DNA of 64,000 bases from an uncultured Acidobacteriota bacterium (GTDB lineage Bacteria > Acidobacteriota > Thermoanaerobaculia > Multivoradales > JBCCEF01), in contig CAVSQV010000002.1 of the NCBI GenBank assembly GCA_963730155.1, positions 960,944 through 1,024,943 of the forward strand. The letters run 5' to 3'. Position numbers and translations under genes: made by a program. Below, one piece after another: positions 4,824-27,839 of this stretch; the first letter of the stretch is position 1, and the number at the start of each line of letters is the position of its first letter. A model generated the notes under the pieces. It was not told where the DNA came from and ran no database searches. It saw only the letters and a list, made by a program, of their open reading frames with translations.

Positions 4824-5033
4824 CGCCTCGGCGCCCGGCTCCACCGGCCCGGCCGTGCGGCTCCCGTCGAGTCGCCGGCCGGGCCGCTGCCGTTTGGGGC
4901 CGCCGGCTGTTTCGGCCGCCGCCGCACCGATTGCCGTGGTGCGGCATGGCCTGGTATGATTTGCCGTAGTGCGGCAAACTCGACCGACCCGAGGTCTTGA
5001 CGAAACCGGGTCTTCCAAGAAGGGGGTCCGACC

Positions 5034-6952
5034 ATGGCACACCGAGAAGTCACCGAAAAGGAAGCGATGGAGGTTGCGGAGGCCTCCCGCGAGAAGGAGT
5101 GGAAGCAGCCGAGCTTCCTCCGCGAGCTCTTCCTCGGCAACTTCCGGCTCGACCTGATCCACCCCTACCCGCTGCCGCCGACCGAAGAGGAGGAGCGGCC
5201 GGAGTTCCGGGCCTTCTACGAGGCGTTCAAGGAGCTGCTCCGCCAGGAGGTCGATCCGGTCGCGATCGACGCCACCGGCGAGTACCCCGAGTCGTGGTCG
5301 ACGGCCTGCGCAAGCTCGGCGCCTTCGGCATGAAGATCCCGAAGGAGTACGGCGGCCTCGGCTTCACCTCGGTCGAGTACCAGAAGGTGATGCAGCTGGT
5401 CGGCAGCGTCGACGGCAACGTCTCGGCGCTGCTCTCGGCCCACCAGTCGATCGGCGTGCCGCAGCCGCTCAAGCTCTTCGGCAGCCCGGAGCTGAAGAAG
5501 AAGTACCTGCCGCGCTGCGCCGCCGGCGCGATCTCGGCCTTCGCGCTGACCGAGCGCAGCGTCGGCTCCGACCCGGCGCGCCTGCTGACCACCGCCGAGA
5601 AGACCCCCGACGGCGACTACATCCTCAACGGCGAGAAGCTCTGGTGCACCAACGGCACGCTCGCCGAGCTCCTGGTGGTCATGGCCGCGACCCCGAGACC
5701 AAGGCGATCAGCGCCTTCGTCGTCGAGACCGACTGGCCCGGCGTCAAGGTCGAGCACCGCTGCCACTTCATGGGGCTGCGCGCGCTCGCCAACGGCGTGA
5801 TCAGCTTCAAGGACGTGCGCGATCCCGGCCGAGAACCTGATCGGCAAGGAGGGGCATGGTCTCAAGATCGCGCTCATCACGTTCAACGACGGGCGCCTGT
5901 CGCTCCCCAACGGCTCGGTCGGCACCGCCAAGGCGTGCCTCGAGATCTGCCGCAAGTGGTCGAACGAGCGCGTGCAGTGGGGCAAGCCGATCGGCAAGCA
6001 CGAGGCGATCGCCCACAAGCTCGCCGACATGGCGGCCAACACCTTCGCCATGGAGTCGCTGGTCGGGCTCGCCACCGCGATGGCCGACCGCGGCGACTTC
6101 GACATCCGCCTCGAGGCGGCGGCGGCCAAGGAGTGGAACACGGTCCGCGCCTGGCAGATCGTCGACGAGACGATGCAGATCCGCGGCGGCCGCGGCTACG
6201 AGACCGAGACCTCGCTGGCCGCCCGCGGCGAGGAGCCGATGCCGGTCGAGCGCGTGATGCGCGACTACCGCATCAACCAGATCTTCGAGGGCTCGAGCGA
6301 GATCATGCACCTGTTCATGGCGCGCGAGGCGGTCGACAAGCACCTCGAGGTCGCCGGCGCCCTGATCGATCCCAAGAAGGGGCTGTCCGAGAAGCTCGCC
6401 GCGCTGCCGACGATCGGCGCCTTCTACGCCACCTGGTATCCGACCCGCTGGCTCGGCTGGGGGCACTTCCCGCGCTACCGCGAGTTCGGCGACCTCGCCG
6501 GCCACCTGCGCTTCGTCGAGCGCAGCTCGCGGCGGCTCGCGCGCGCGGTCTTCCACGGCATGGTGGTCCACGAGGCGAAGCTCGAGCACAAGCAGGCCTT
6601 CCTGTTCCGCCTGGTCGACATCGCGATGGAGCTCTTCGCGATGGCGACCTCGGCCTCGCGCGCCCACGCGATGACCGAGCGGCGCCACCCCGACGCCGTC
6701 AAGGCCCGTGAGCTGGCCGACCTCTTCTGCCGCATGTCGCGCCGCCGCGTCCGGGCGCTCTTCCGCGAGCTGTGGTCGAACGACGACGTGCGCAAGTACA
6801 AGACCGCCCAGAACGTCCTCGCCGGCCGCCACGTCTGGTTGGAGTCGGGGATCATGGGCCTCGGCGCCACCGCCAGGTCGCTCCAGCCGCCGACTCCGCT
6901 CGAGAGGCGTGGCGAGCGGGTACGGGCGGCACGGCCGGTGGCCGCGGGCTAA
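5034..6952 (+). pseudogene. Long-form acyl-CoA dehydrogenase, reading frame broken 3 times (about 5290, 5695, 5820)
   Basis: A continuous ACAD sequence is recovered only by joining four frames. MAHREVTEKEAMEVAE...GEYPES | VVDGLRKLGAFGMKIPKEYGGLG...LWCTNGTLAELLVVMAATP | ETKAISAFVVETDWPGVKVEHRCHFMGLRALANGVISFKDVR | IPAENLIGKEGHGLKIALITFNDGRLSL...IRGGRGYETE...INQIFEGSSEIM... to the stop at 6952. Confidence 0.8.
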
Positions 6953-7064: not shown

Positions 7065-7361
7065 ATGAGCAGGTTCGATCTCGAACGGTTCACCACGGAC
7101 TACGAGCGAGATCCGGCTCTGGCGGAAGGGTTCGCCGAGCTCGGTGACGACCCCCAGGGTTGGGCTCGGTTGGCGCGGGAGAAGGGCTACGAGATCACCC
7201 CGGACGAGGCCGGGAGCCTGCTCTCGAGCCGCCGCGAGCTCTCCGACGACGAGCTGGACGAGGTCGCCGGAGGCTGGGACGGAGACACCACCGGCGGAAG
7301 CGGAGGCAGCGGCGGCGGGACCGGCGACGGGACCGGCGGCGGCACGGGTGGCGGCCCCTGA
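7065..7361 (+). CDS. Nif11-like-leader RiPP precursor peptide with Gly-rich core
   Basis: 98 aa, GGAGG RBS 7 nt upstream. The leader MSRFDLERFTTDYERDPALAEGFAELGDDPQGWARLAREKGYEITPDEAGSLLSSRRELSDDELDEVAGG matches the Nif11-type leader pattern, ending in LSDxELxxVAGG (double-glycine cleavage motif). Predicted core: WDGDTTGGSGGSGGGTGDGTGGGTGGGP. Confidence 0.8.
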   Translation: MSRFDLERFTTDYERDPALAEGFAELGDDPQGWARLAREKGYEITPDEAGSLLSSRRELSDDELDEVAGGWDGDTTGGSGGSGGGTGDGTGGGTGGGP

Positions 7362-8454
7362 CCAGGACCCGCTCGCCGTCTTCGGCTGGGATGCCTGGCT
7401 CCCTCTCCTCGACCCTCGGCTCCCCTCTCGGCTGGTCGATCGCCGGGCCCGCGAGTGGCTCGCCGGCGTCTCCCGCCTGGCTCCGGGCGACTGCGCGGGC
7501 GTCCTCGAGCTGAGGCTCGCCGGCGATTCTCCCGCGGTCGACTTCGCCTTCCGCCTGATCCGCCCGGACCAGGCCCGATCGGTCTCCCCCCGGCTCTCCG
7601 CGGCGCGGGCGCGGAGCTTCGTCTCGCGCTGGGCGCGGCGGGAGCCCGAGCTGGAGCCGGTCTCCTCCCTCTGGCTGGAGTTCGACTCTCCCGGCGACGG
7701 CGCCGAGCGGGAGCCGGGGAAACCGCCGGCGCCGCTGCTCTGCGCCCGGTTCGGGCGCGTGGTCGACGCCGGCTGGCTGACCGGGTCGCTGGTGCCGGCG
7801 CTCTGCGGCGAGGCGCTTTCCGCCGCACGGCGCCACATCCTCGACCGCTGCCTCGAGGCGCTCCCCGCCGGGGCGCGCGTGCTCTACTTCTTCAGCCTCC
7901 TCGGCCGGCCCGGGGAAGCGGTGCGGATCGAGATCTTCGGCCTCGACCCGGCGGCCATGGCCGCGTACCTCCGGCAGGCGGCCTCCCCGCGGGAGGCCGA
8001 GCTGGTGGACGCCGCGGCGCCCCTGGTTGCGGGCGCCGGCCGCTACCACCTCTCGCTCGACGTCGGCGCGGAGGTCGCGCCGCGGATCGGCGTCGAGTGC
8101 GGGTTCGAGCGCCAGCCGCGGCGGGAGCCGCGGTGGGCCGAGCTGCTCGATCGGCTGGTTGCGCACCGCCTCGCCGACCCGGCCAAACGCGACGCCGTGC
8201 TCGCCTGGCCGGGCCAGGACAGCCCGTGGACCGCCCCCGGCCGCTGGCCGGCCGCCGCGCTCGGCCTCGGCGGCCACGGCGTCCGCGGCCTGAGCCATCT
8301 CAAGCTGGTGCTCCGCCCCGGCCGCGCGCCGAAGGCCAAGGCCTATCTGCTGTTCCAGCACCTGCCGGCGGGGGCCGGCGCCGGTCAGGGCGCGGCTGCG
8401 ACCGGCGCCGGCAGTCCGAGTGCGCCGGCCAGCTCCGCCACCTGTCCGCGCTGA
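7348..8454 (+). CDS. Hypothetical protein adjacent to the Nif11-type precursor (candidate tailoring enzyme)
   Basis: Track ORF 7144..8454. The part upstream of 7348 overlaps the precursor gene and is Arg/Pro-rich. GTG at 7348 is the first plausible start (start uncertain). About 368 aa with normal composition and five strand-turn-strand segments separated by helical stretches. No family recognised. Confidence 0.5.
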   Translation: MAAPDQDPLAVFGWDAWLPLLDPRLPSRLVDRRAREWLAGVSRLAPGDCAGVLELRLAGDSPAVDFAFRLIRPDQARSVSPRLSAARARSFVSRWARREPELEPVSSLWLEFDSPGDGAEREPGKPPAPLLCARFGRVVDAGWLTGSLVPALCGEALSAARRHILDRCLEALPAGARVLYFFSLLGRPGEAVRIEIFGLDPAAMAAYLRQAASPREAELVDAAAPLVAGAGRYHLSLDVGAEVAPRIGVECGFERQPRREPRWAELLDRLVAHRLADPAKRDAVLAWPGQDSPWTAPGRWPAAALGLGGHGVRGLSHLKLVLRPGRAPKAKAYLLFQHLPAGAGAGQGAAATGAGSPSAPASSATCPR

Positions 8455-10010
8455 GCCGCCAGGCCGAGCCCCGCGAAGGTCCGGTCGGCCTCGCCGAGCC
8501 TGGCGGCGGCGAGGTCGCGATCGCCCGCGGCGTGGGCCAGGCGGGCGAGGTCGAGCCGGGTCCAGGCGAGCTGGAACGGCGCCTCGATCGAGGCGAAGGT
8601 CGCCTCGGCCTCGCCCAGGCGCGCGGCGGCCTCGTCGCGGTCGCCGCCCGCCAGCGCAATCCGTCCCAGGGCGCGCAGCGCCAGCCCGGCGCCGTACGGG
8701 AAGCCGGCCTCGCGGGCGATCTCGTGCCCCTCGGTCCCGGCCTCGCGGGCCTCCTCGGGGCTGCCGGCGGCGAGGTGAGCCTCGGCGAGGAAGGCCGCGA
8801 ACCAGGCCTGGAGCTGCCGCATGCCGGTGCCGGCGAGGCGTGCGCCGGCCTCGCGCAGGGAGCCGATCGCCGCCCGGGCGTCGCCCTGGGCAAGGTAGGC
8901 GAAACCGAGGAATCCGGTCGCGACGGCGGTGTTGAGTGGATCCCTCGAGCGCTCGACGCCGCGCCGGCAGAACTCGACCGCCTCGTCGAGCCTCCCCTCG
9001 CAGGCGTGGAGATGGCCGATGCTCCACGAGGCGTCGAGGCGGTAGTCGTCGAGCGCCTCACCGATCGCGCAGGCGCGGTGGAACGCCCCGAGCGCCTGCT
9101 CGAGCTGGCCGAGGGCGAAGTGGTGGAAGCCGGCCACCCAGTAGGCCTGCCCCTGCCACCAGGGCTCGGCGCTACGCTCGAGCAGGACCACCGCGCGCAG
9201 GCTCTGCTCGAGCCCGGCCGATCCCTGCCCGGTCCAGAAGGCGACCCGGCCGAGGACGTAGCGGGCCTTGCCCTCGGTGGCCTCGTCGCCGCCCTGCTGC
9301 GCCGCCGCGATCGCGGCCTCGGCGTGCTCGCGCGCCGCCTCGGAGTTGCCGAGGTAGCTGTGGGTGTGGGCGAGCCAGAAGTGGTAGCGAGCGACCAGCG
9401 AGGGCTCGCCGATCCCCTCAAGGTGCTCGCGGTGACGCTCGAACACCTCCAGCGTCGCGGGCAGGCGCGCGAGCGGCAGGAGCGAGTCGGCGAGCTGGAG
9501 CAGGATCTCGACCACCCGCCGGTCGCGCCCCTCCGCGGGCAGGGCGCGGGCGTGCTCGAGCGCCTCGGACAGCGCCTTGGCCGCCTCGGCGTGGGCATAG
9601 CCGGCGGCGGCCCGGGCCGCGAACAGGCTCAGGTAGTGGACGGTCTTGCCGGGGTCGCCGGCACGGGGGTAGTGGTAGGCGAGGCGGTCGTAGACCTCCT
9701 CCAGGCGCCCGGCGTGGAGCGCCTCGAGGGCCGCCGCGGCCTGGGCGTGGAGCGCCCGCCGGCGGCTCTTGAGCAGGCTCTCGTAGGCCACCGTCTGGAT
9801 CAGCGAGTGCTTGAAGGTGTAGAGCTCGCGGTCGACCTCCGGCGCGCTGTAGAGGAGCTCGCGATGCTGGAGGTCGGCAAGGAGCGGCGGCAGCGGCTCG
9901 CCGCGGTCCCAGATCCGATCGAGCAGATCCACCGACAGCTCGCGCCCGAGCACCGAGGCGAGCTGGAGCAGGTGCTTCTGGGCCTCCGGCAGGCGGTCGA
10001 TGCGCGCCAT
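8385..10010 (-). CDS. Same regulator, C-terminal part: TPR-rich STAND-like domain
   Basis: Begins MARIDRLPEAQKHLLQLASVLGRE. In another frame just upstream, DADPATVQGVLMARIDRL joins it to the 10010..11608 ORF, so one indel near 10040-10060 splits a single protein of about 1070 aa. Repeated TPR-like helices follow (YLGNSEAAREHAEAAIA..., AQGDARAAIGSLREA...). Confidence 0.75.
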   Translation of the reverse strand: MARIDRLPEAQKHLLQLASVLGRELSVDLLDRIWDRGEPLPPLLADLQHRELLYSAPEVDRELYTFKHSLIQTVAYESLLKSRRRALHAQAAAALEALHAGRLEEVYDRLAYHYPRAGDPGKTVHYLSLFAARAAAGYAHAEAAKALSEALEHARALPAEGRDRRVVEILLQLADSLLPLARLPATLEVFERHREHLEGIGEPSLVARYHFWLAHTHSYLGNSEAAREHAEAAIAAAQQGGDEATEGKARYVLGRVAFWTGQGSAGLEQSLRAVVLLERSAEPWWQGQAYWVAGFHHFALGQLEQALGAFHRACAIGEALDDYRLDASWSIGHLHACEGRLDEAVEFCRRGVERSRDPLNTAVATGFLGFAYLAQGDARAAIGSLREAGARLAGTGMRQLQAWFAAFLAEAHLAAGSPEEAREAGTEGHEIAREAGFPYGAGLALRALGRIALAGGDRDEAAARLGEAEATFASIEAPFQLAWTRLDLARLAHAAGDRDLAAARLGEADRTFAGLGLAAQRGQVAELAGALGLPAPVAAAP

Positions 10011-11608
10011 CAGGACCCCCTGGACGGTGGCCGGATCGGCGTCTCCGACGGCAGCCCGGAATCGTCGCCGAGGGCGCGGGCCAGCTCCTCGAGGAAGAAC
10101 GGGTTGCCCTCGGCGCGCTCGACGATCCCGCGTACTGTCTCGGCGCCGACCTCGCGCCCGCGCAGGGCGGCGTTGACCACCGCCTCGCTGTCGGCGGGCG
10201 ACAGGCGGCGCATGACGATTTGGCTGGCGTAGGACTTCTGCAGCCAGCGCGGCTGGTAGCCCGAGCGGTAGGTGAGCAGCAGGAGCGCCCGCGCGCCGCC
10301 GATCTCCTCGATCAGCGACTCGAGGAACTCCTGCGAGGTCTCATCGATCCAGTGCAGGTCTTCGAGCTCCATCACCACCAGATTGCGGCGGCTGGCGGCC
10401 AGGACCATGCGGCGCATGGCGGCGAAGACGCTCGCCTGGAGCGCCCGCGGATCGCCTAGGTCGCCGCCGGCGGCGTCGCGGTGGCCGAGCAGGTGGAGCA
10501 ATGGCCCGAGGTGCTCCTCGTCCCCGAGCCCGACCGCCGCCAGGCTCGCGCGCAGCCGCTCGGCGGCGGTCTCGGCGTTGTCGCTCTCGTCTATCCTCGA
10601 GGCCCGGCGGACCATCCCGATGAACGGGAAGTAGGGGATGCCGCTGGCGTAGGACAGGCAGTGGCCGCGCAGGCGGCTGCCGGGCCGGTCGTGCAGGGTC
10701 CGAGAGAGTTCGATCAGCAGCCGCGACTTGCCCGCTCCGGCCTCGCCCGCGATCCCTGCCACCTGCCCGTGGCCGGCCTCGGCCTGGCCGCGCAGCTCCT
10801 CGAGTACCGCCATCTCGCGGGCACGGCCGACGAACGGGCTCAGCTCTTGCCCCCGGGGCCTCGCGGGTGCGCCGAGGGAGCGGGCGGTGCTGAGCACGCG
10901 CCAGACCGGCTCGGCGCCGGCATCGCCCTCCGGCAGCGGCCCCAGCGACTCCAGCTCCAGCTCCGGCTCGACCAGCGCCGCGATCTCGGCTCCGGCCAGG
11001 ATCCAGCCCGGTTGCGCGAGGTCCACCAAGCGGCGGGCGCGGTCGGCGGCCGGACCGACGATGGCGCCCGCCGGCCCGCCGATGATCACGCTTCCGCTCG
11101 CGAGCCCGATCCGGGCCTCGACGCTGGGCCCCTCGTCCTCCGACTCGCGGAGTCTGCGCGTGAGTTGGAGGGCGGCCAGGGCGGCTCGTTGCGGGTGGTC
11201 CTCGGCGGCGACCGGGGCGCCGAACAGGGCCAAAAAACCGCGACCGAGGAGCTGGGTCACAGTACCGCCGAAGCGCTCGACCTGCTCGCGTGCAACGTGC
11301 ACGAACTGGTTGAGCAGAGCGTGGAGGTCCTCCGCCTCGGCGTCGCCGGAGGTCGGGGTCATCAGCTCGCCGAGCAGGATGGTGATCTGCTTGATCTCAC
11401 CCTCTCGCGCCGCCGGACCGGGCGCGGCGCTCGCCTGCACGGCCGGATCGGGCGCGGCCAGCTCGGCGCCGCAGGAGCCGCAGAAGCGCGCGCCCGACAC
11501 CGCCGCCGCGCCGCAGCGGGGGCAGGCGGAGTCCAGCGGGGTTCCGCATCGCATGCAGAACCGGGCTTGCGGGGGACTCTCAAGGTCACAGCGCGAGCAA
11601 ACCATCAT
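10010..11608 (-). CDS. Signal-transduction regulator, N-terminal part: double zinc ribbon + adenylate/guanylate-cyclase-like domain + AAA/P-loop
   Basis: MMVCSRCDLESPPQARFCMRCGTPLDSACPRCGAAAVSGARFCGSCG (4 CxxC pairs). Cyclase-like GEIKQITILLGELM...RFGGTVTQLLGRGFLALFGAP. P-loop GIAGEAGAGKSRL. Ends in an out-of-frame tail; continues in 8385..10010. Confidence 0.8.
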   Translation of the reverse strand: MMVCSRCDLESPPQARFCMRCGTPLDSACPRCGAAAVSGARFCGSCGAELAAPDPAVQASAAPGPAAREGEIKQITILLGELMTPTSGDAEAEDLHALLNQFVHVAREQVERFGGTVTQLLGRGFLALFGAPVAAEDHPQRAALAALQLTRRLRESEDEGPSVEARIGLASGSVIIGGPAGAIVGPAADRARRLVDLAQPGWILAGAEIAALVEPELELESLGPLPEGDAGAEPVWRVLSTARSLGAPARPRGQELSPFVGRAREMAVLEELRGQAEAGHGQVAGIAGEAGAGKSRLLIELSRTLHDRPGSRLRGHCLSYASGIPYFPFIGMVRRASRIDESDNAETAAERLRASLAAVGLGDEEHLGPLLHLLGHRDAAGGDLGDPRALQASVFAAMRRMVLAASRRNLVVMELEDLHWIDETSQEFLESLIEEIGGARALLLLTYRSGYQPRWLQKSYASQIVMRRLSPADSEAVVNAALRGREVGAETVRGIVERAEGNPFFLEELARALGDDSGLPSETPIRPPSRGS

Positions 11609-12026: not shown

Positions 12027-12182
12027 ATGGCTGAAAACACCCCCAAGACCAAGGAAGAAATGGAGGAGCGCCTCGAAGATCTGCAGCTCGATCCGGAAGA
12101 CCTCGACGCCGTGGCCGGTGGCGCGACCTGCCAGACCTGCTACAGCTCGTACCAGCCCAAGGACGTGGAGGTCGAGTCCTGA
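12027..12182 (+). CDS. Double-glycine-leader RiPP precursor peptide (51 aa, not in ORF track)
   Basis: AGGAGG at 12016-12021, ATG at 12027, TGA at 12180-12182. Translation MAENTPKTKEEMEERLEDLQLDPEDLDAVAGGATCQTCYSSYQPKDVEVES: acidic leader ending DLDAVAGG (compare ELDEVAGG in the 7065 precursor). 19-aa core ATCQTCYSSYQPKDVEVES is rich in Cys/Ser/Thr/Tyr. Lies immediately upstream of the modification genes. Confidence 0.7.
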   Translation: MAENTPKTKEEMEERLEDLQLDPEDLDAVAGGATCQTCYSSYQPKDVEVES

Positions 12183-12226: not shown

Positions 12227-12261
12227 GTGCGGCTTCCTGGCTGATTGCCAGGAAGCCGCAC
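12227..12261 (+). terminator. Perfect 15-bp stem-loop between precursor gene and enzyme genes (attenuator / transcript-stabilising hairpin)
   Basis: GTGCGGCTTCCTGGC (12227-12241), loop TGATT, GCCAGGAAGCCGCAC (12247-12261): exact reverse complements, 45 nt after the precursor stop. No U-tract follows, so it is not a canonical intrinsic terminator. Confidence 0.5.
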
Positions 12262-12307
12262 CGGAAGCCGAACGTCTCACTTCTGGTTAGAGAGGGCCCA
12301 GACCGTC

Positions 12308-13870
12308 GTGTACGTCGACCCCGTCAACGACAGCGTTGAACGTGCGTGGACTCACAATGTTCCTTTCGGTGACTGCCGGTACATCCGTCAACGGGTGATC
12401 GACAGCGTCAGCCGGCGGCTCGATCTTGCACAGCGCTTGTTCCCCCAGGCGACGCCTGTTCTGGAGCGACTCCGATCTCTGGATGACGCGACCGCCGCTC
12501 GTGTGCTTGAGCACCCGTTCCTGCGCTCCGTGGTGCTTGCCGCAATCCGGCACCTGAAACACCCGTGGGAAACCCTTACACACGAGCAAGTCGAGCAGTA
12601 CCTCGAACAGCTCGGGATCCTGCTCGCCGAAGGCTGGAGAGGCGGGAAGCTCTACTCGCTCTCCCTGCTGCTGGAAGAAGAGGATGACGAGGGTGCGGCC
12701 CGACACAAGCTCTGGCAGTGGACTGGCGAACAGGGAGATCGGACGCTCACGGGTATTACCCCCACGGTCTTCCTGAAGAACAGCCCCAACTGCGTCTTTC
12801 ATCGTCCCACCGAGGAGGAGGCCGGGAACCTCCGCCAGGGGATTGCGCTTCTCCGGGAGCTCTTCCCTCTCCTGGCGCCCAGCGTCCTGCGTCATGTCGA
12901 TGTCATCGCACTCGTCAGTGCCAAGCCCGCTCGCGGCGAGGCCAGGCTTCCCGACGGCAACCCCCTCACTACCGATCCGCTCCTCTCCTCTACCGCCGAT
13001 ACATCGCCCGGGGTGGTCTTCGTCAGCCCCAGTGTGCTGACCAACCCCTGGTATATCGCGGAAATCATCCTGCACGAGGGCCTTCATTCGAAGCTGTATG
13101 ACGTGATGGCGACACACAACCTGCTTCGGCCGAACTACACGAATGAAGAGTCTGCCCAGATCCACCCGCTGTGGCACAGATCTTCCGTATCGTGGGATGT
13201 GCACCGCTCCCTCTTCGCCATGCACGTCTATGCCCACCTCGCCCTGTTCTTCCAGCGGGTGGCCAGGAACTTCGATGCGCTGGCACCACGCTTCGGACCT
13301 CTCCATGTCATCGATGCACGGCTGTCGATGCGCCGCTCGCTCGATCGAGCGCACTTCCTCGGAATGAAGCTGGCGGAGGTCGGCACCCGGGACCTGGGAG
13401 CCGCTGGCCAGCTCCTGCTTGCGCAGCTTCAGGAGATGCTGCTGGTGCTCGATGGCGCGTACGGAGAGGATGCTTCCGTGAATGCCGCGCCCAGGCCCGA
13501 AGAGGTGGCTCAGCGACTCGTCGGGGACCTGTATGCTCGACAGACCCTGGCGCTGGAGCGCGTCCTCGCCCACTGGCGCACGATCTCCTCGCACCCCCAG
13601 GGCGCCGGCATCCCCGCCCTCCTCACCGAAGTCGCCCAACTGGACGCCGCGCTCGTTGGGCAGGATGCGGCCATACCGCCGATCTCCGCTGAGGTCAAGG
13701 ACACGCTGAGAGTACTCATCGACCTCCGGAAGCAGGTGGCCCATCGGTTTATGAACGGGGGGGCATCGCCCAGCCGCTCGGAGATCAGCCTCGACACCCT
13801 GATGGACTCCGCCGACCGCTCGGGAAGCCTGTTCGCTCGAGCCAACATCACGATCGAACTCGACCCCTGA
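12308..13870 (+). CDS. HExxH-motif domain protein 1 (TIGR04267-like; candidate peptide-modifying metalloenzyme)
   Basis: Track ORF 12245..13870. The TTG at 12245 lies inside the hairpin, so GTG at 12308 is preferred. Motifs: VPFGDCRYIRQR, LLRELFPLLAP, NPWYIAEIILHEGLHSKLYD (HExxH), HPLWH, HVYAHLALFF. Paralogous to the next gene. Confidence 0.8.
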   Translation: MYVDPVNDSVERAWTHNVPFGDCRYIRQRVIDSVSRRLDLAQRLFPQATPVLERLRSLDDATAARVLEHPFLRSVVLAAIRHLKHPWETLTHEQVEQYLEQLGILLAEGWRGGKLYSLSLLLEEEDDEGAARHKLWQWTGEQGDRTLTGITPTVFLKNSPNCVFHRPTEEEAGNLRQGIALLRELFPLLAPSVLRHVDVIALVSAKPARGEARLPDGNPLTTDPLLSSTADTSPGVVFVSPSVLTNPWYIAEIILHEGLHSKLYDVMATHNLLRPNYTNEESAQIHPLWHRSSVSWDVHRSLFAMHVYAHLALFFQRVARNFDALAPRFGPLHVIDARLSMRRSLDRAHFLGMKLAEVGTRDLGAAGQLLLAQLQEMLLVLDGAYGEDASVNAAPRPEEVAQRLVGDLYARQTLALERVLAHWRTISSHPQGAGIPALLTEVAQLDAALVGQDAAIPPISAEVKDTLRVLIDLRKQVAHRFMNGGASPSRSEISLDTLMDSADRSGSLFARANITIELDP

Positions 13871-13880
13871 GGATTGTCTC

Positions 13881-15002
13881 TTGACGAGCTACGCCGAGAC
13901 ACAGACAGCATGGCTATCTGCGGAGAAGCAGCTGGCTCAGGACGTGCCGTTTGGCTCCGCCGACTACATCCGCGAGCGAGCTGCCGCGAGCTACCACCGT
14001 CGCCTGGAGTTGCTGGGCGAGCACCTACCCGCGGCCGAGCGGTTCGCCGAGGCGCTCGGCCCCGCCGCGAGCAGCGACTCCATCCAGGTCTTTGCGGATC
14101 CGGTCGTCCGGGGTTCCATCGACGATCTTCTTCGGGCCTTCAGGTTCGCCGGAGAGCGGAAGCCCAATGACGACCAGCTCGAGCTCTTCGCGTACTACAG
14201 CGCGCGTCTCGACGAGCTGAAGCGCGATGCCGCGGACACCGCTGACAGCTTTCGACAGGAGCTCCTCGACCGGCCGATTCGATATTGGTCCGATGCGAGC
14301 GCCCGGACGGTCCGTGACCGCGCCTTCGCTGCGATGTTGCGGCGGCACCTGCCGGGGGCGCGCGTCTACGAGGCGGAGGCGGAGACGGAGGCCGCCATCA
14401 GCCAAGGCTTGGCGCTCCTCCAGGAGCTGCTGCCGCTGGCTGCACACAGCGCCGTGTCTCATCTTCACTTCGTCATAGTCGACGAGTTCTACGACAAGGT
14501 GGGTTCCGCGACGATCGCCCCCATTCTCGGGACGATCTTTCTGGCTCGAAGCACGCTACGGAGCCCCTGGACCATCGCGGAGGGCATCCTCCACGAGTGC
14601 ATGCACCTCAAGTTCGTGGAGCTTGAGCATACGCATTCGCTCCTGCCCCGGGGTTACTCCGAGCAGGCCTCTCCTCGTCTTCATCCGCCCTGGCACCCCG
14701 AGACGGAGGCCTGGCCGATGAACCGGGCGCTCACGGCGGCCCATGTCTACGTCACCCTCGCCCTGTACTCGGTGGCCTCCGAAGCAGCGGCGCCGGAGTT
14801 TCAGGCGCGCTATGGTCCGTGCCGGCGTTCGCAGCTTCTCGTTGATCCGATCGCTGCCGGCGCACGCGCGCGCAGTCTCATCGACCTCGCGTCGGGGCAC
14901 CCCGAGAGCCTGGGCAAGGCAGGGCGGGCGTTCCTCGAATGGATGAGGGATGTCCTTGAGAAGCTGGCGGCAGGGCCCACCGTGCTGCGCAAGGCTGTCT
15001 GA
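13881..15002 (+). CDS. HExxH-motif domain protein 2 (paralog of the preceding gene)
   Basis: TTG at 13881, 7 nt after GAGGA (13869-13873). 373 aa. Motifs: VPFGSADYIRER, LLQELLPLAAH, SPWTIAEGILHECMHLKFVE (HExxH), HPPWH, HVYVTLALYS. Collinear with protein 1 but lacks its C-terminal extension of about 150 aa. Confidence 0.8.
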   Translation: MTSYAETQTAWLSAEKQLAQDVPFGSADYIRERAAASYHRRLELLGEHLPAAERFAEALGPAASSDSIQVFADPVVRGSIDDLLRAFRFAGERKPNDDQLELFAYYSARLDELKRDAADTADSFRQELLDRPIRYWSDASARTVRDRAFAAMLRRHLPGARVYEAEAETEAAISQGLALLQELLPLAAHSAVSHLHFVIVDEFYDKVGSATIAPILGTIFLARSTLRSPWTIAEGILHECMHLKFVELEHTHSLLPRGYSEQASPRLHPPWHPETEAWPMNRALTAAHVYVTLALYSVASEAAAPEFQARYGPCRRSQLLVDPIAAGARARSLIDLASGHPESLGKAGRAFLEWMRDVLEKLAAGPTVLRKAV

Positions 15003-15006
15003 GACC

Positions 15007-16155
15007 TTGCCCGTACACGAGCTGCCGGCGGTGCCCCCTGCCGAAACAGCCGCGCCCATTCCCGGCCGCGCCACGGCAGCCGCAACAGCCGAGTACGCCC
15101 GGCGTCTTCAACGGGTCGCTCGTCCTGAGCACTTCCGCGACGTCCATGGCTTGACGGTCTCGTCGATCGGCATCGGCACCTTCCTGGGTCCCGCGACCAG
15201 CGAGGCCGATGCAACCTACCGCAGCGCCATCGCTCGAGCCATCGAGCTCGGGTGCAATCTCATCGACACGGCGATCAACTACCGCCACCAGCGCGGCGAG
15301 CGGTGCGTCGGCGCGGCGGTGCGCGCTGCCTGTGAAGACGCCACCCGGCGCAGTGAGCTCGTCGTCTCGACCAAGGCCGGCTACCTGCCGTTCGACGGAG
15401 AGATGCCTCAGGACGCGAACCGATACCTGCACGAGCAGTACGGGGAGCGCTTGCAGCTCGCGCCCGACGAGATCGTCGAGGGTCACTGCATCGCTCCCGC
15501 ATTCCTGCGGGACCAGATTGCCAAGAGTCGCGTCAACCTCGGGCTTGAGACCCTCGACGTCTTTTACCTGCACAACCCCGAAGAGCAGCTCCGTTTCGTC
15601 GATCGGGCGATCTTCGAGCGCCGACTGCGCGCCGCCATGGCCACCCTCGAGGAGTCCTGCCGGCAGGGGCACGTCGCCAGCTATGGCCTGGCGACCTGGA
15701 CTGCCTTTCGCGAGAGTACGGAGCACCCGCAGTACCTGTCACTCGACGAGGTCGTCCGGTGGGCGGCCGAGGTGGGGGGGCCGCAGCATCACTTCCGCTT
15801 TCTTCAACTGCCGTTGAACCTGAAGGCACTTGAGCCCTGTATGCTCGCCAACCAGTGGCACGATGGCCGGTGGTGCACTCTGCTTCAAGTCGCGCAGGCC
15901 CATGGCATTTACATCGTCACCTCCGCCCCTCTGTTGCAGGGGCGCATCCTCGGTCGGCTGCCCCTGCCCATCAAGGAGGCCTTCGCCACGCTGTCCAGCG
16001 ATGTGCAGCGCACCGTGCAGTTCGTGCGCTCGATACCCGGAGTCGGCAGCGTGCTGGTGGGAATGAGTCGTCCCCAGCACGTGGAGGAGAACCTGGCGCT
16101 GGCGGGTTTCGCCCCGGACACCGCCGCCGTGCAGCAAGTGTTCCGGCGCAGCTGA
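15007..16155 (+). CDS. Aldo/keto reductase family oxidoreductase
   Basis: Track ORF 14950..16155. TTG at 15007 is 5 nt after the upstream stop; the ATG at 14950 would overlap by 53 nt, so the start is uncertain. AKR pattern GLTVSSIGIGTFLG...AIELGCNLIDTAINYRHQRGERCVG...VVSTKAGY...LDVFYLHNP. Confidence 0.8.
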   Translation: MPVHELPAVPPAETAAPIPGRATAAATAEYARRLQRVARPEHFRDVHGLTVSSIGIGTFLGPATSEADATYRSAIARAIELGCNLIDTAINYRHQRGERCVGAAVRAACEDATRRSELVVSTKAGYLPFDGEMPQDANRYLHEQYGERLQLAPDEIVEGHCIAPAFLRDQIAKSRVNLGLETLDVFYLHNPEEQLRFVDRAIFERRLRAAMATLEESCRQGHVASYGLATWTAFRESTEHPQYLSLDEVVRWAAEVGGPQHHFRFLQLPLNLKALEPCMLANQWHDGRWCTLLQVAQAHGIYIVTSAPLLQGRILGRLPLPIKEAFATLSSDVQRTVQFVRSIPGVGSVLVGMSRPQHVEENLALAGFAPDTAAVQQVFRRS

Positions 16156-16240
16156 CACACGACGGGCGGGGGGCGCTCTACCGTTGAGCGCCAGCGTGTG
16201 GGCACTCATCGGGCGCTCGGCTAGGAGCCCTGGATTCTTC

Positions 16241-17326
16241 ATGTCGGGTCCACTGGTTTCCATTGTCATTCTGTCGTGGAACCGGCCCAGGTCCACCCGC
16301 TCGACCCTTCGGGCTCTCGCCGACGTTCCGGCCGGCGTGCCGCGCGAGGTCATCGTCGTGGACAACGGCTCCAACGAACGAACAGGCGACGAGCTGACGG
16401 CGCTCCAGGGCCTGGGGCTCATCGATCGCCTCGTCCTGCTGCCCGAGAACCGGGGAACGTCTCCTGGTTACAACGTGGGCTTCCGTGCCGCAGATCTCCG
16501 CTCGAGCTTCTTCACTAAGCTCGACAGCGACGTCGAGATCCTGACGCCGGACTGGCTGAAGGAGCTGATCGGGCTGCTGGACGAGAATCCCGGCGTCGGA
16601 ATTGCCTCGACCGAAATCGTCAACCACGTTGGCATCCAGGAGCTGCCCGTCATCCGCCTGGAGACCGGGCACCAGGTGCGGGACTGGCAAGGGTGCCCGG
16701 CGGGAGGCGGCGGGATGACGTTTCGCCGCTCGCTCTACGAGGATGTCCGCGGCTTTCGGGAGAGCTACGGTGAAGGCCTGTTGCTGATGCCGGACGACCT
16801 GGAGTTCTTCTACAGGATCCGAGAGCGAAACCTGAAGGCCTACTACGCCCACGCCATCCACTCGCGGACGATCGACCACCTCGAGGAGAGCCCCGCCTCC
16901 TATCACGCCTTCAAGAAACGGCAGTACTTCCTACTGCGCACCCGCTACTTCGATCTAGCCCGCACCGGCGACACGGTCTTCGTACCCCACTTCGTTTCCG
17001 TGGAGGCTCTTCCGACCCTCATCCATCCCGGGCAATCGATCCATGTGCGCTGCTCCATCGCGGCGGCAGATCGACGCAGCATGGCCCTTGGATGCACGGT
17101 GGTCTCGGCGGAGACGAACAGCATCGCGGACTGTAGCGTGACCGCGGACATCCAGACCGCGGCGCCCCTCTCCGTGCACGAGTTGCCGCTCCGGATTCCA
17201 CCCACCTTGCTGCCCGGGCCCTACCTCGTGAAAGCGATCCTTTGGAGCGACCCCACCGCAGGGGTCGTTTCCGAACGCCTGGCGGACCTCGTGCAGATGG
17301 GCGAGATCACTCTCGAGCCTGGTTGA
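16241..17326 (+). CDS. Family 2 glycosyltransferase with a C-terminal extension of about 120 aa
   Basis: ATG at 16241 (codon 20 of track ORF 16184..17326). GT-A signature [12 protein letters not shown]...[13 protein letters not shown]...[12 protein letters not shown]...KLDSDVEI (DxD). The C-terminal third ([23 protein letters not shown]...[10 protein letters not shown]) is beta-rich and unassigned. Confidence 0.8.
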
Positions 17327-17396
17327 AACCGACGAGCGGGACCCGCGCCGACTCCGGCGGCCGAGCAGATCGGCGGGGAGGACGGGCGGCATCCGA

Positions 17397-20300
17397 TCAG
17401 ACCTGCTGCCGCTCGACCATGCGGCGGAAGGTGCCCCGGCCCCCGGCCAGCTCGTCGTACGTCCCAGCCTCCACCACCCGACCCCGTTCCAGCACGTAGA
17501 TGCGGTCGGCGTTCTGGATCGTGCTCAGGCGGTGGGCGATGACGATGCGCGTCGCCTTCAGGCCCTCCAGGCTGTCGGCTGACGATCTCCTGCGTGCGGT
17601 TGTCGAGGGCGCTCGTCGCCTCGTCGAAGAGGATGATCCGCGGCCGGTGGACGATCGCGCGGGCGATCAGCAGGCGCTGCTTCTGGCCGCCGGAGAAGGT
17701 CTCCGCCGCCCTCGCTGATCACGGTGTGCATGCCCATCGGCATGGCCTTGATGTCCTCCTCCAGGCCGGCCATGCGCGCCGCCTCCCAGGCGTCGTCGAT
17801 CCCCAGGTTGCGAGCTGCCGACGATGTTGGAGAAGATGTCCCCGGCCATCGGCCGGCCGTTCTGGAGGACGACGCCGATCTGGCGGCGCACCGACTGGAG
17901 GGCGAGCGCGGCGAGGTCCTGGCCGTCGAAGTAGATCGAGCCCGGCGGTCGGCTTCTCGAAGCCGAGGATCAGCCGCAGGCAGGTCGACTTGCCGGCGCC
18001 CGAGGGCCCGACCAGGGCGATGAACTCCCCGGGCCGGGCCCGGAACGAGACGTCGTCGAGGATCAGCGGCCCGTCCTCCTGGTAGCGGAAGGAGACGTGG
18101 CTGAACTCGATCTCGCCGGCCAGCTCGCCGGCCTCGGCCTTGGATCGGATCGACCTCCGGGGACTGCCTCGAGGATCGGCTGCAGGCGCTCGTAGACCGG
18201 CACCATGGCCAGCACGCTGGAGAAGATCGCCGATCATCGTCAGCGCCGCCGCCAGGAACTGGCCGAAGGCGGCGTTGAAGGCCAGGAACTCGCCGATCGA
18301 CAGGCGATCTCCTCCGGCGGAGAAGCCGACCATCGGCGAAGATGGCCAGCGAGGTGAGCACGCCGTAGACGGCGTTGAACGCGGCCTGGACGTTGGCGAC
18401 CCGCTGCGCCGCGACGGCCTGCTCGCCGCTGCTCGGCGAAGCGCTCGGCCCAGCGGCGCGAAGGCGCGCGTGCTCGGCGCCGCCGACCCGGAGCTTGGCG
18501 ATGCCGTGGATCAGGCCGAAGAGGAGGCTCGCGATCTTGCCCTGCGAGGCTCGAGGAAGCGGCGCTGGTGGCGGAGCTGGAGGTAGGCGCAGGCCGGTGG
18601 TCACCGCCACCAGCAGCGGCCACCAGGCCGGTCGCCACCAGGGCCAGCCGCCAGCTGTAGTAGAAGAGCAGCGCCGAAGCTGAAGACGGAGAAGACCGCC
18701 GCCAGGACCGAGGTCAGGACGTTGCCCGGTCAGCAGCTCGCGGATGGTGTCGATGCCCAGCGAGCGGTTCGCCAGGTCGCCCACGGTGAAGCGGCGGAAG
18801 AAGGACACCGGCAGCGACAGCAGCCGGTCCCAGACGGCGGCCTGGAGCGAGCCGTCCATCTTGCCGCCGAGGCGCAGCACCGCGATGCTGCGGGTCACCT
18901 GGAAGACCGGCGCGGCGAGCGCGGCGAGCGATCAGGGCCAGGGTGATCTGGACGAGGCGGGCGCGGTCGGCCGCCGGGATGACGTTGCCGAAGAGCTGGC
19001 CGGTCAGGATCGGCACCAGCAGCCCGAGCAGGCCGCCGCCGAGCCCCATCAGCAGGATGGTCGCGAGGTCGCGCCGGCGGCCCGCGAAGGCGAGGCCGCA
19101 GGAGGTCCCGCAGGCGCAGCGGCCGCTCGGGCAGCGGCGGATAGAACATGTACGCCTCGCCGGCGAGGCTCTCCGCCACGGCCGGCGTCGACCGGCGTGC
19201 GGCGTCCGCTCGACCGGATCGACCAGCTCGTAGCTGCGGGGCGAGGTGGGCAGCAGGGCCACCGGCCGGCCGGCGCTTCTGCTGCGTCGTCCGCGGACCG
19301 GAAGCGCCACGAGCGGGCCGTTGTCGCGGCGCCACCAGTCGTCGCGCAGGATCACCCGCCGGTGGCGGATCCGCGACGCCGCGCAGATCCGGGCGAGCCG
19401 GTCTCCGCTGGCGGCAGCTCGGCCGTCGCGTCCGGCGGGCTGCGGATGCTCGATGCCCTGGACCTCGCCGACCAGCCGGCAGGCGGCGAGCAGGGGGTCG
19501 GAGCCGGCGTCGAGCGGCGCGCCCGCGGCGGTCCGGGCGCCGAGCACCGAGGCCAGCCGGGCGTAGCGCCGTCTCCAGGGTCGGGCGGTCGAGGTCGGTC
19601 TTGCGGCCGAGCCGCTCCCGCTCGTCGCTGCGCGTCCTCCTCGCGCAGCCGGTGCGACGTAGGCGAGCAGCAGGCGGTGGAAGCGGTCGAGCCCCTCCCA
19701 GAGCGCCGCCGCTCCGTAGCAGGCGCTCGCGGTCGACGCACGAGAGGGATCCGCACCTCGCCGTCGCTGACCAGCCAGGTCTCGTCGGGGACCGGCAGGA
19801 GGAAGTCCTCGGGCGGCGAGGGCCAGGTCGTCGCCGGCCGAGGAAGCGGAGCGACCCGTCCAGGTGGCGCACCCAGACGACGCCGTCGGGCGGTGCGCAG
19901 CGCGCCGTCCCCACCTCGGCCAGGCGCACCTCGGCGCCGGGCCGCAGCTCCTGGAAGACCTTCGGCGGCCGGCCGCGGACGACCTCGCCGGTCAGCCGCC
20001 GCACCCAGCCGTCGAGCCAGCGGGTCAGCGCCGGCGGCGAGCTCCGTCCGGCGCGCCAGCTCGCGGAGGGCGGCGGCGGGCAGCCGGAGCAGCCGGGTGC
20101 CGGGGTGGCCCACCGCCAGGAGGGCGCTCCGGGGCTCGCGCGCGTCGCCGACGCGCCGCTCGACGGCCTGGAACGGCGGAGCTGCCGGCCGAGGTCGAGG
20201 CTCGCCACGAGCTCGCCGCCGTCGAGGGTGGCGAGATGCTGCGGACGCCGTCGCCCGCGCCGGCGCCGCTCCCGCCGCGCGGCGGCGCACGGCGAAGAGC

Positions 20301-20439
20301 TCGACCCGCCCGGTGCGCACCAGCCAGGCCGCTCGCGCCGGCGCCGAGCCGCAGCGGCGGGTTGCCGCCGGCCTCGATCTCCTCGCGCCGTCGGCTCGGC
20401 GAGGCAGGCGGTCAGGTCCAGGTCGGCCGGGGTGCTCAT
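17397..20439 (-). pseudogene. NHLM/NHLP-type bacteriocin export ABC transporter, permease/ATPase subunit with long N-terminal regulatory-like domain; heavily frame-disrupted
   Basis: ATG at 20439, TGA at 17397-17399. Real sequence is spread over all three frames. Recognisable pieces: [180 protein letters not shown] (Walker A), [14 protein letters not shown] (signature), [11 protein letters not shown] (Walker B), [30 protein letters not shown]. Four frame changes traced in the last 520 nt alone. Confidence 0.8.
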
Positions 20440-20446
20440 CGGTCGC

Positions 20447-22699
20447 TCACTCGGCTGCGATCAGCCGGGCGTAGGGGCCTTCCGCACGCGCCTTGAGCTC
20501 GTCGTGGGTCCCGCGCTGCGACGACCTTGCCGCGCTCGAGGACGATGATCTCGTCGGCGTCGCGGATGGTGCTCAGGCGGTGGGCGATGATCAGGCAGGT
20601 GCAGCCGCGCCGCCGCAGGCTCTCGTCGATCCGCTTCTCGGTCGTCGGGATCGAGCGCGCTGGTCGCCTCGTCGAGCACCAGGAGCGTCGGCCGGCCGAC
20701 CAGCGCGCGGGCGATCTCCAGCCGCTGGCGCTGGCCGCCGCTCAAGTTGGCGCCGCCCTCCTCGACCGGGCTGTCGTAGCCGCCGGGCCGGGCCGCGATG
20801 TCGTCGTGGATGCAGGCGTCCTTGGCCGCGGCCACCACCTCCGGGCAGCGGCACCGTCGCGTCCCACAGCGTCAGGTTCTCGCGCACCGTCCCCTCGAAC
20901 AGGAAGACGTTCTGGTCGACCACGGCCAGCGAGTTGGTCGAGCACGCCGCGGCGGGATCTCGGCGCGGCTGCCGGCCGTCGAACAGGATCTCGCCGCTCC
21001 CACGGCTGGTAGAGCCCGGTGACCAGCCGGGCGACCGTCGACTTGCCGCTCCCCGAGCCGCCGACCAGGGCGACGCGGGCGCCGGGCTCGAGCCGCGAGG
21101 TCGAGGCCCTCGATCAGCGGCGGGTCGAGCCGGCTGTAGCCGAAGGTGACGCCGCGCAGCTCCAGCCGGCCGGCGAGCTTGACCGGCAGCTCCGCGGGCG
21201 GCTCCTCCGGCGCCGCCCCCGGTCGGCCGCGGTCGCGCGGTCGACCTGGTAGCGCAGCACGTCGTCGAGCCGGTTCATGTCCCCCTCGACCACCTGGAGC
21301 CGGCCGCCGAGGCTGACCAGCCGGTTGACCGGCGCGATGAAGCTGCGCCATCAGGACCTGGAAGGCCACCAGCCCGCCGAGCGTCAGGTCGCCGTCCATC
21401 ACCCGCAGGCCGCCGAGGCCCAGGATCAGCGCGGTGTTGACCGCCGGCGAGCAGCGGCGGCACGGCGTCGAGCATCTGGGTGTAGCGCTCCAGCTCCTGC
21501 CGGCGCGTTGACCACCTTGGCCTGGTAGCCGGCCCAGCGGGCGAAGAGGTCCGCCTCGCCGCCGGTCGCCTTCAGGGTCTCGATGATCTGCAGGCCGCCG
21601 ATCGCCGTGCCCATGGAGCTTGCCCTGGTCCTGGAGCAGGCGGCGGTTGCCGTCGACCCGCTTGCGCGAGACCCAGCGCAGGGCCGCGACGTTGAGCGAG
21701 ACGACGCCGATGCCCGACCAGGGTCAGCAGCGGGTCGTACTGGACCATCAGGACGGCGAAGAAGACGATCATCAGCGCGCCCAGGGCGTTGGTCGCGAGG
21801 TCGCGCGACGAGGAGCTGGGCCACGCGGTCGTTGATCGCCGACCCGCGAGCTGATGTCGCCGGCGAAGCGCTGGGTGAAGAACTCGATCGGCAGGCGCAG
21901 CACGTGCCAGAGGAAGCGGCTCGAGCCGGCCACCGCCAGCCGGGTCTCCAGGCGCAGCAGGTAGGCCTGCTGCAGCCAGGTCAGGAGCGCCGGTCAGCGA
22001 GCGCGGCGAGCGCCCATGCCGAGGAGCAGCGGCGGCAGCCAGTCGCGGCGGCCCTCGAGCAGGACGCTCGTCGACGAAGACCTTGGAGAAGACCGGCGAC
22101 GACCAGCCCCGGGACGACCAGGGCCAGGCCGGCGAGGCAGCACGAAGGCGAGCGCCGCCGCCGGCGCCGGCGAGCCGGCGGCGCGAGCGCCGGGAGCAGG
22201 CTGCGGCGGCGCGCCGCCGCGTCTCGAACTCCGGACCCGGCTCGAAGGTCAGCACCACGCCGGTGAAGCGCCTGGTCGAGCTCCTCCTCGCGTCACCGCG
22301 CGCGGCCCGGCGGCCGGGTCGTTCAGGTGGACGCCGCCCCTTGCGGAAGCCCTCGAGGACCACGAAGTGGTTGAAGTTCCAGTGCAGGATCATCGGCGGC
22401 TGCGAGCGTCGCGCAGGGCCTGCCGGCTCCTTCTTGAACCCCTTGGCCTCCAGGCCGTAGCGGCGCGCCGCCTTGACCATGTTGCTCGGCCTTGCTGCCG
22501 TCGCGCGAGACGCCGCAGGCGATGCGCAGCTCCTCGAGCGGCACCCAGCGGCCGTAGTGGGCGAGGACGATGGCGAGGGCCGCCGCGCCGCACTCGACCG
22601 CCTCCATCTGGAGGACGGTCGGGCGTGCGCACCGGCCGCGGCGAGCGCGGTCGCCGCCGCCGCGGCCGAGCCAGCGGGCGAGGAGCGCCGGAGCTTCAT
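20447..22699 (-). pseudogene. NHLM/NHLP-type bacteriocin export ABC transporter with N-terminal C39 peptidase domain (PCAT); heavily frame-disrupted
   Basis: ATG at 22699 overlaps the HlyD stop (ATGA). TGA at 20447-20449, 7 nt before the next gene. C39 domain: [88 protein letters not shown] part: [32 protein letters not shown], and in another frame [24 protein letters not shown]...[18 protein letters not shown]. Many frame changes. Confidence 0.8.
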
Positions 22700-25512: not shown

Positions 25513-25528
25513 TGGCTAAGCTACATCC

Positions 25529-27149: not shown

Positions 27150-27162
27150 CTCTTGCTGAAGG

Positions 27163-27494: not shown

Positions 27495-27839
27495 GACGGT
27501 CGAGATCCTCAGGTCACTGGCCCAGGCAATGCTAACCCAGGCCGAGAACGGGCGGCCTGTCGACCGGGTTGGCGAAGAGGGCCCCGGGGGCCAGGCGGTT
27601 GGCCCAGCGCTCGGGGGGACGGTGAAGGTGAGGCCGACGACCACGAGGTCGAAGAGCAACACGAGGACGAACCAGGCGACCAGGACCAGAGCGTAGGCGC
27701 GGAGGCTGCGGCGGTCGAACAGAGAGCTTCCGCCCCGAAGGCGGCGTCACCGAGCAGTTTCTAGCGCTAGCCGAGCGAGGCCGCCGGCTCCCGGCCCGGA
27801 GAGCCTGGGCGTGACCGGCAAGGCGCTCGTGCCCGAGGG

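Follow-up and report, generated by a model that had tools for sequence, protein, structure and literature searches.

A Nif11-leader precursor with a single core Trp is encoded beside a predicted MppC-family ABBA prenyltransferase in a probable acidobacterial genome

Introduction

To our knowledge, leader-dependent prenylation of ribosomal peptides by prenyltransferases of the alpha-beta-beta-alpha (ABBA) type has been shown for lanthipeptides only, and very recently. MppC from Moorena producens, itself an ABBA prenyltransferase, attaches a geranyl group to C5 of Trp82 of MppE, a precursor with a Nif11 leader; the enzyme is strictly leader-dependent, acting only with the whole leader attached, and Trp-specific, refusing His and Tyr replacements and not accepting free L-Trp (PMC12715784; Wakeel, McShan, Agarwal, JACS 2025). 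Here we analyse a locus in which a Nif11-leader precursor gene, whose Gly-rich core contains one Trp, overlaps the gene of a 368-aa protein that we place in the MppC family, next to a convergent gene for a large multidomain protein. The locus lies on a 64-kb stretch of DNA with 72.8% G+C (contig CAVSQV010000002.1, positions 960,944 to 1,024,943), called the window hereafter; unless another locus is named, coordinates are counted from its first letter.

Prenylated peptides can serve as signals, as is the case for ComX. Another prenyltransferase, NctPC, was reportedly described by Hubrich et al. in Chem in 2024. According to the summary in PMC13290415, NctPC is a bifunctional ABBA prenyltransferase-terpene cyclase, which first geranylgeranylates Trp and afterwards cyclises the attached prenyl group; for PalQ, geranylation of an N-terminal Trp is described (PMC13290415). 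Sequence similarity networks seeded with MppC and with the cyanobactin prenyltransferase PagF do not overlap (PMC12715784). TIGR03903 was described as a large companion protein beside NHLP precursors (Haft et al. 2010, PMC2887384).

Results

The precursor open reading frame (ORF; 7065-7361, plus strand) encodes a 98-aa peptide, and 7 nt 5' of its ATG lies the Shine-Dalgarno sequence GGAGG. It scores above the cut-offs of both models for this leader type, with 33.7 bits against a curated cut-off of 23.8 for PF07862 (Nif11) and 38.0 bits against 32.3 for TIGR03798, of which model positions 1-68 of 68 are covered. These scores bear out the full Nif11-type leader ending in VAGG that a first-pass annotation of this DNA had recognised from the letters, and for which it had proposed the TIGR03798 search. 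The leader, which shares 33% identity with the N-terminus of the MppE leader, comprises 70 aa (7065-7274, plus strand): a structured N-terminal part, an acidic L(X)4L region (LSDDEL) and a double-glycine type end, ...LSDDELDEVAGG (...RRELSDDELDEVAGG in a longer excerpt), after which the core begins with W. The core, WDGDTTGGSGGSGGGTGDGTGGGTGGGP, is 28 aa long (7275-7361, plus strand, stop codon included) and contains 16 Gly, one Trp at position 1, which is the proposed prenyl acceptor, no Cys and no other aromatic residue. The earlier description of the core thus stands for its length, its sole aromatic residue and its lack of Cys, and falls for its count of 17 Gly. Because the window assembly has frameshifts at other places, the cores of independent relatives matter here: near-identical long Gly-rich cores and the same gene overlap are found at two related loci, L021 and L022 (82-88% identity), on separate Illumina metagenome contigs, so the frame of the Gly-rich core is not an assembly artefact.

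The overlapping gene (7348-8454, plus strand) starts with GTG 14 nt before the precursor gene ends and encodes the 368-aa protein, predicted to be an ABBA (PT-barrel) prenyltransferase of the MppC family. The first-pass annotation had described it as a protein of unrecognised family and had asked whether its frame is conserved. It is: besides one identical protein on record, 30 homologs were found with identities of about 30-88%. Searches of Pfam, NCBIfam and PADLOC with the protein gave zero matches. The same annotation had picked five strand hairpins by eye and likened their layout to the (alpha-beta-beta-alpha)5 barrel of ABBA prenyltransferases. An AlphaFold2 model made from a 26-sequence alignment (predicted local distance difference test, pLDDT, 88.4; predicted TM-score, pTM, 0.87) shows ten long strands in five alpha-alpha-beta-beta repeats, with two helices before every hairpin and disorder only at residues 1-6 and at residues 345-368, an unconserved tail. 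The five predicted strand pairs (51-56/64-70, 105-112/130-135, 177-183/192-197, 231-239/243-252 and 310-322/329-339) coincide with the hairpins picked by eye. The barrel likeness is borne out as well, as the best 50 matches of the model in a Foldseek search of the PDB are ABBA prenyltransferases exclusively (probability 0.99-1.00, E 3e-7 to 3e-3). They include the indole prenyltransferases IptA, PriB, CymD and 6-DMATS, as well as NphB/Orf2, CloQ, EpzP, AmbP1/AmbP3 and the peptide prenyltransferases LimF and DciF. As profile searches of PDB sequences returned no ABBA enzyme, the tie of the 368-aa protein to solved ABBA structures is at the level of the fold only.

The link to MppC was measured through an inferred ortholog, a 375-aa gene directly 3' of an MppE ortholog at a Moorena producens locus (L008:10745-11872). 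The MppE ortholog of L008 is 87% identical to MppE, and the locus also carries LanM, a Trp halogenase, an arginase-like pair and a terpene-synthase-like gene, all of them genes described for the mpp cluster (PMC11791876). Our family profile matches the inferred MppC ortholog with 189.6 bits (E 3.6e-59), the sole match among eight L008 ORFs tested, and the window protein aligns with it at 31% identity over 267 aa (BLASTP E 1e-30; phmmer E 3e-25). On these profile and pairwise matches, the 368-aa protein belongs to the MppC family. Among 1.84 billion cluster representatives, a profile search returned 4,122 clusters at E<=1e-3 and 1,706 at E<=1e-30; the family is large (~4,100 clusters at 50% identity), and neither Pfam nor NCBIfam has a model for it. 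Some of its members, 640-750 aa in length, carry the prenyltransferase domain at the N terminus, followed by a squalene-hopene-cyclase-like (SQHop_cyclase_C-like) domain (P0099, P0115, P0153), and in P0112 a SAM-methyltransferase domain follows. In an alignment of 165 diverse family members, the Moorena MppC ortholog included, twelve residues are 94-100% conserved, all of them present in the window protein: E54, D65, E111, D113, R187, R193, D238, E250, H317, K319, K331 and Y333. They sit on the predicted strands with i/i+2 spacing (WLEFD, VRIE, HLSLD, PRIGVE, SHLKLV, AKAYL), a polar pattern that would be expected of barrel-lumen residues binding diphosphate and metal.

But what does this enzyme have beside it at other loci? 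Our survey comprises 38 loci, 18 from protein look-ups and GTDB genomes (the first set) and 20 from metagenomes. Loci were searched for with a 14-sequence alignment and precursors were called by a leader hidden Markov model; ten further precursors came from a protein search. An adjacent Nif11 precursor was present at 34 of the 38 related loci, nearly always directly 5' of the prenyltransferase gene, which answers in the affirmative whether homologs of the 368-aa protein occur beside Nif11/NHLP precursors, a check that the first-pass annotation had suggested. At two of the four loci without a precursor, L031 and L042, the upstream sequence is clearly too short, and L014 has only ~650 nt upstream; L010 has ample flank, yet no adjacent Nif11 precursor. 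The 40 distinct cores span 7-31 aa, and each holds a single Trp and is free of Phe, Tyr and His. This Trp, the sole invariant feature of the set, stands at position 1 (29 cores), 2 (5) or 4 (6), preceded by Asp, Glu, Ala, Gly or Thr only. The remainder of the cores is of low complexity, with 39% Gly, 16% Pro, and Thr, Ser and Asp. Cys is confined to a WCG[ND]xxTTG sub-group (L002, L011, L015, L030, L032), where alone a full-length LanM is encoded upstream. Since its core is Cys-free, the window peptide falls into the non-lanthipeptide majority; no LanM-like ORF was found in the 64-kb window at E<=1e-5. All 12 loci from GTDB genomes come from metagenome-assembled genomes (MAGs), 11 of them titled Acidobacteriota or Thermoanaerobaculia. 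The published MppC network is dominated by Cyanobacteriota, Myxococcota and Pseudomonadota, and its supplement does not mention Acidobacteria (PMC12715784).

The third gene of the module (8385-11608, minus strand) encodes a protein whose Pfam domains are a double zinc ribbon, a degenerate class III cyclase-homology domain, an AAA_16 STAND ATPase and TPR repeats. It is convergent with the prenyltransferase gene, and the two 3' ends overlap by 70 nt (8385-8454), likewise in L021; the overlap covers the disordered, unconserved C-terminal tail of the prenyltransferase. In the window the partner reads as two ORFs (10010-11608 and 8385-10010). The split site, at about 10037, is a CCC run with one C missing (ATCCGG in the window, ATCCCGG in L021), and we rejected a true two-gene regulator because, compared with L021, the split comes down to a single nucleotide deleted from a homopolymer. 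It is likely an assembly error, with a real frameshift being conceivable as well. A single-ORF homolog of about 1000-1150 aa adjoins the prenyltransferase at 16 of the 18 first-set loci and is present at 11 of the 20 metagenome loci, where the flank is too short to judge at most of the other nine. The loci that lack the partner despite adequate flank include the LanM-type L002 and L032.

Against TIGR03903 (TOMM_kin_cyc), the partner scores 255 bits, below the cut-off of 705.75, and aligns with model positions 276-940 only; its N terminus is a DZR zinc ribbon and contains no Ser/Thr kinase domain. The metal-binding and transition-state motifs of the cyclase domain are canonical in L011, L012, L015, L016, L018, L019 and L020 (FCDLVGST, GDGFMALFG, DYTAVGDTTNLAARL) and lost in the window and in L001, L003, L007, L010, L013, L017, L021 and L022. 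The intact cyclase form accompanies Pro-rich or WCG..TTG cores, and the degenerate form accompanies cores with a Gly run at their end. Being paired so constantly with the module, the STAND/TPR protein probably has a part in its regulation or in sensing. A PADLOC match of the partner to the Pycsar cyclase (E 5e-4) is to the generic cyclase domain only.

Candidate export genes follow further downstream, where two ABC transporters and a TolC-like gene lie within 17.2-25.5 kb on the minus strand. One is a Peptidase_C39-ABC transporter (PCAT; approximately 20436-22700, minus strand), whose gene is split over several reading frames, with Peptidase_C39 profile positions 3-48 and 45-132 in two frames and an ABC_tran fragment at 20461-20871. 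This PCAT is likely the double-glycine leader protease and exporter of the module, to which we would assign it rather than to the neighbouring HExxH cluster described below. The second transporter (approximately 17221-20435, minus strand) has ABC_membrane and ABC_tran fragments in separate frames, and its membership in the module is uncertain. ABC transporter genes lie beyond the regulator at seven of the 18 first-set loci. On the far side of the transporter genes, a DUF7005 protein with an HExxH motif (REHECTHYF) is encoded at 25520-26716 on the plus strand (PF22541, E 1e-120). A homolog (E 1e-95) exists in the Moorena mpp-like locus L008 (18364-19533, minus strand), and none was found in the flanks of the other loci. 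The DUF7005 protein may be a leader peptidase, and may correspond to the putative leader peptidase MppP of the mpp cluster; its place in the module is uncertain.

The ABC transporter and TolC-like genes in 17221-25515 (minus strand) each extend over at least two reading frames, and so does an acyl-CoA dehydrogenase gene at 4997-6952 (plus strand). These broken frames point to an error-prone assembly rather than to module-specific decay. Either many indel errors, of the sort met in long-read MAGs, or pseudogenisation would account for them, and gene calls in the window need care.

Between the module and the transporters lies a gene set of its own. A separate 51-aa precursor (12027-12182, plus strand), with the leader end LDAVAGG and the core ATCQTCYSSYQPKDVEVES, precedes two homologs of alpha-ketoglutarate-HExxH peptide beta-hydroxylases (TIGR04267, 38.5 and 50 bits), an aldo-keto reductase (AKR) and a GT2 glycosyltransferase (12245-17326, plus strand). 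The HExxH, AKR and GT2 genes are absent from the other 37 loci, the closest relatives L021 and L022 (82-88% identical) included, and we rejected them as members of the module for their own precursor and their lack of synteny elsewhere.

The isoprenoid genes to which the first-pass annotation had drawn attention are present, but not nearby. They encode a squalene/phytoene synthase (SQS_PSY; 37367-38362), a GHMP kinase (41654-42865), an HMG-CoA reductase (42850-44733) and a polyprenyl synthetase (45211-46434), all on the minus strand, the last being the sole polyprenyl_synt protein in the window and 37 kb from the prenyltransferase gene. By its mevalonate-type route, this group could be the source of the prenyl donor. 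At other loci it is unlinked to the module, and we rejected it as evidence for prenylation: at a distance of 30-39 kb, with housekeeping-like mevalonate and carotenoid/squalene genes, it looks like general metabolism and adds little. The window further encodes a 720-aa protein with CHAT protease and FGE-sulfatase-like domains (33036-35198, minus strand) and an AbiEii-type nucleotidyltransferase toxin homolog (26679-27746, minus strand), both unrelated to the module.

Discussion

Our analysis indicates that this module probably makes a prenylated ribosomal peptide, by leader-guided prenylation of the single core Trp through an MppC-family ABBA enzyme. Trp prenylation by the 368-aa protein is strongly supported, as four independent lines converge on it: the predicted fold, the homology to MppC, the cyclase-domain fusions within the family and the survey of precursors with its 40 cores. 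That the core Trp is the acceptor is what we infer from them. Prenylation of this residue by an ABBA-type barrel had been put forward by the first-pass annotation as a tempting speculation, and the same four lines now support it. The kind of enzyme is already known from work published in 2024-2025. New here are a linear, non-lanthipeptide class of substrate, a Trp at or next to the cleavage site, a low-complexity tail, a conserved STAND partner and a source in Acidobacteriota.

How could such a module work? The precursor would be translated together with the overlapping gene of the soluble PT-barrel enzyme, which, by analogy with MppC, would bind the structured N-terminal part of the Nif11 leader and its acidic L(X)4L stretch. 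Leader binding would set the register, such that the Trp right after VAGG enters one mouth of the ten-stranded barrel, within which a prenyl diphosphate from general isoprenoid metabolism would be bound. Holding this prenyl diphosphate would be the task of the conserved Arg, Lys, His and Tyr residues, and the conserved acidic residues probably bind Mg2+. Loss of diphosphate would give an allylic cation that alkylates the indole. In the presumed order of steps, a C39-peptidase ABC transporter, for which the PCAT is the candidate, would then cut after Gly-Gly and export the product, which would begin with a prenyl-Trp and continue as an acidic, disordered tail rich in Gly. The zinc-ribbon/cyclase-like/AAA/TPR protein would be the third obligate partner, probably as regulator or sensor.

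Several points weigh against this interpretation. The 368-aa protein is a predicted enzyme, placed from sequence and a structural model. Profile searches of PDB sequences with family alignments of 26 and 93 sequences found no ABBA enzyme, and since the sequence matches no ABBA model or solved chain, the ABBA assignment rests on the predicted fold and the homology to MppC. The Foldseek TM-scores are moderate (0.34-0.51, rmsd 6-10 Å), and the homology was measured against the inferred ortholog from another Moorena assembly. In MppC, F340 is a Phe that inserts into the structured part of the leader (PMC12715784); F334 of the Moorena ortholog, the sole Phe near that position given an uncertain numbering, aligns with Gly311 of the window protein. 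MppC also favours a lanthionine-cyclised core (PMC12715784), and because the window core is Cys-free and the window lacks a LanM, the geometry of its substrate differs from that of MppC. Finally, the conserved module contains no prenyl-diphosphate synthase, and the transporter genes are frameshifted in the window assembly.

Could the enzyme prenylate the adjacent peptide somewhere other than on the indole? Cyanobactin ABBA prenyltransferases modify Ser, Thr, Tyr, His, Arg and N termini (PMC12715784; PMC13290415), so that other acceptors come into consideration: Thr or Ser by O-prenylation, Asp, or, by N-prenylation, the alpha-amine newly formed on leader removal. The window core does hold Thr, Ser and Asp, Asp directly follows Trp in 18 of the 40 cores, and a Trp at position 1 would become the N-terminal residue upon cleavage. 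However, Trp alone is present in all 40 cores, several of which are without Thr/Ser or without Asp, and its position 2 or 4 in 11 cores counts against a requirement for the N-terminal amine. The homolog MppC is moreover specific for Trp, refusing His and Tyr in its place, and strictly dependent on the leader (PMC12715784). We therefore consider an off-indole acceptor improbable. Slimmer still is the chance that the ABBA-like protein has a small molecule as its substrate, or serves non-catalytically as a chaperone or in immunity, with the peptide staying unmodified or being modified by enzymes whose genes lie elsewhere. Of the solved ABBA enzymes matching the model, most do use small aromatic substrates, but the overlapping, translationally coupled gene pair is kept at 34 of the 38 loci, and the module has no further conserved tailoring enzyme. 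The polar residues common with the inferred MppC ortholog are conserved, and MppC refuses free L-Trp (PMC12715784).

We give the least credence of all to the alternative, raised in the first-pass annotation for the HExxH and GT2 enzymes, that the Gly-rich core is modified by the downstream HExxH hydroxylase homologs, AKR or GT2 (12245-17326), with the 368-aa protein as an accessory or leader-binding factor. These genes lie only 5-10 kb away on the same strand, the TIGR04267 scores and the presence of a GT2 fit peptide tailoring, and the core offers Asp, Thr and Ser. Yet the enzymes have their own 51-aa AVAGG precursor directly 5' of them, the opposite-strand regulator gene stands between the two gene sets, none of the other 37 loci has an HExxH, AKR or GT2 gene, and the neighbours in L021 and L022 differ. 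Prenylation of the core Trp remains the reading that we prefer.

Prenylation of the Trp would also leave room for a more speculative role of the whole module. The three-gene unit could form a self-contained, ComX-like peptide-signalling circuit in Acidobacteriota, with the prenyl-Trp peptide as its signal, the TPR-STAND protein as its receptor, and cyclic-nucleotide synthesis as its output where the cyclase motifs are intact. The cyclase domain of the window lineage is degenerate and would therefore need another output. Taken together, we regard this signalling circuit as unlikely.

What would the module offer if Trp prenylation holds true? The locus and its ~40 relatives represent a compact and mostly non-lanthipeptide version of leader-guided prenylation, with a linear core in which nothing is fixed except one Trp at or beside the leader cleavage site. 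For peptide engineering, such a module would be useful as a minimal, genetically encoded means of lipidating a Trp site-specifically where a peptide begins, the portable Nif11 leader serving as recognition handle. Companions of NHLP clusters were noted in 2010, and we know of no role established for them since. The near-obligate pairing with a STAND/TPR/cyclase-like protein provides a concrete route to the role of such large companions in NHLP/Nif11 clusters of RiPPs (ribosomally synthesised peptides that are modified post-translationally).

Finally, we would place the locus among the known systems. With MppC, the window enzyme has homology in common (31% identity to the inferred ortholog), the same conserved polar residues and the lack of a Pfam model, and the precursors are alike in their Nif11-type leader, L(X)4L region, GG end and Trp within a short core. 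However, MppC acts on the fifth residue of the lanthionine-cyclised ACWRWSG, whereas the window core is Cys-free, with Trp first and a long Gly-rich tail. The mpp cluster contains LanM, a halogenase, arginases and a terpene synthase; in the window there is no LanM and no terpene cyclase, with a STAND/TPR partner instead. The hosts differ too, MppC coming from Cyanobacteriota and the window probably from Acidobacteriota. The fused family members of 640-750 aa match NctPC in their order of a prenyltransferase and a cyclase domain, a comparison made by architecture only; the window protein is a stand-alone prenyltransferase domain with no cyclase nearby.

The cyanobactin prenyltransferases PagF, KgpF, LimF and DciF/AgcF likewise are ABBA barrels that modify RiPPs, and KgpF prenylates Trp. 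In contrast to the proposed window system, they act leader-independently on cores that are either free or N-to-C cyclised, and are encoded beside PatA/PatG proteases, a type that was not found among the ORFs examined around the window prenyltransferase gene. The PDB profile searches gave no sequence match to these enzymes either. Structurally, the closest matches are IptA, CymD, PriB and 6-DMATS (E 3e-7 to 4e-5), which use the indole acceptor proposed here, but their substrates are free Trp or small molecules, and the window protein has no match to Trp_DMAT, their sequence family. ComQ/ComX and PalQ share the proposed outcome, a ribosomal peptide prenylated on Trp, and arrive at it with a different fold: ComQ and PalQ are all-helical proteins of the isoprenoid-synthase (trans-IDS-like) type, while the window model is a beta-barrel, combined with another leader type and another partner sensor. 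The partner, for its part, resembles the TIGR03903 TOMM kinase/cyclase fusion, with which its cyclase-homology/AAA/TPR part aligns and which is likewise a large companion of NHLP/Nif11-leader clusters. Where TIGR03903 proteins have a Ser/Thr kinase N terminus and accompany azole chemistry, the window partner begins with a double zinc ribbon and stands beside a proposed peptide prenylation.

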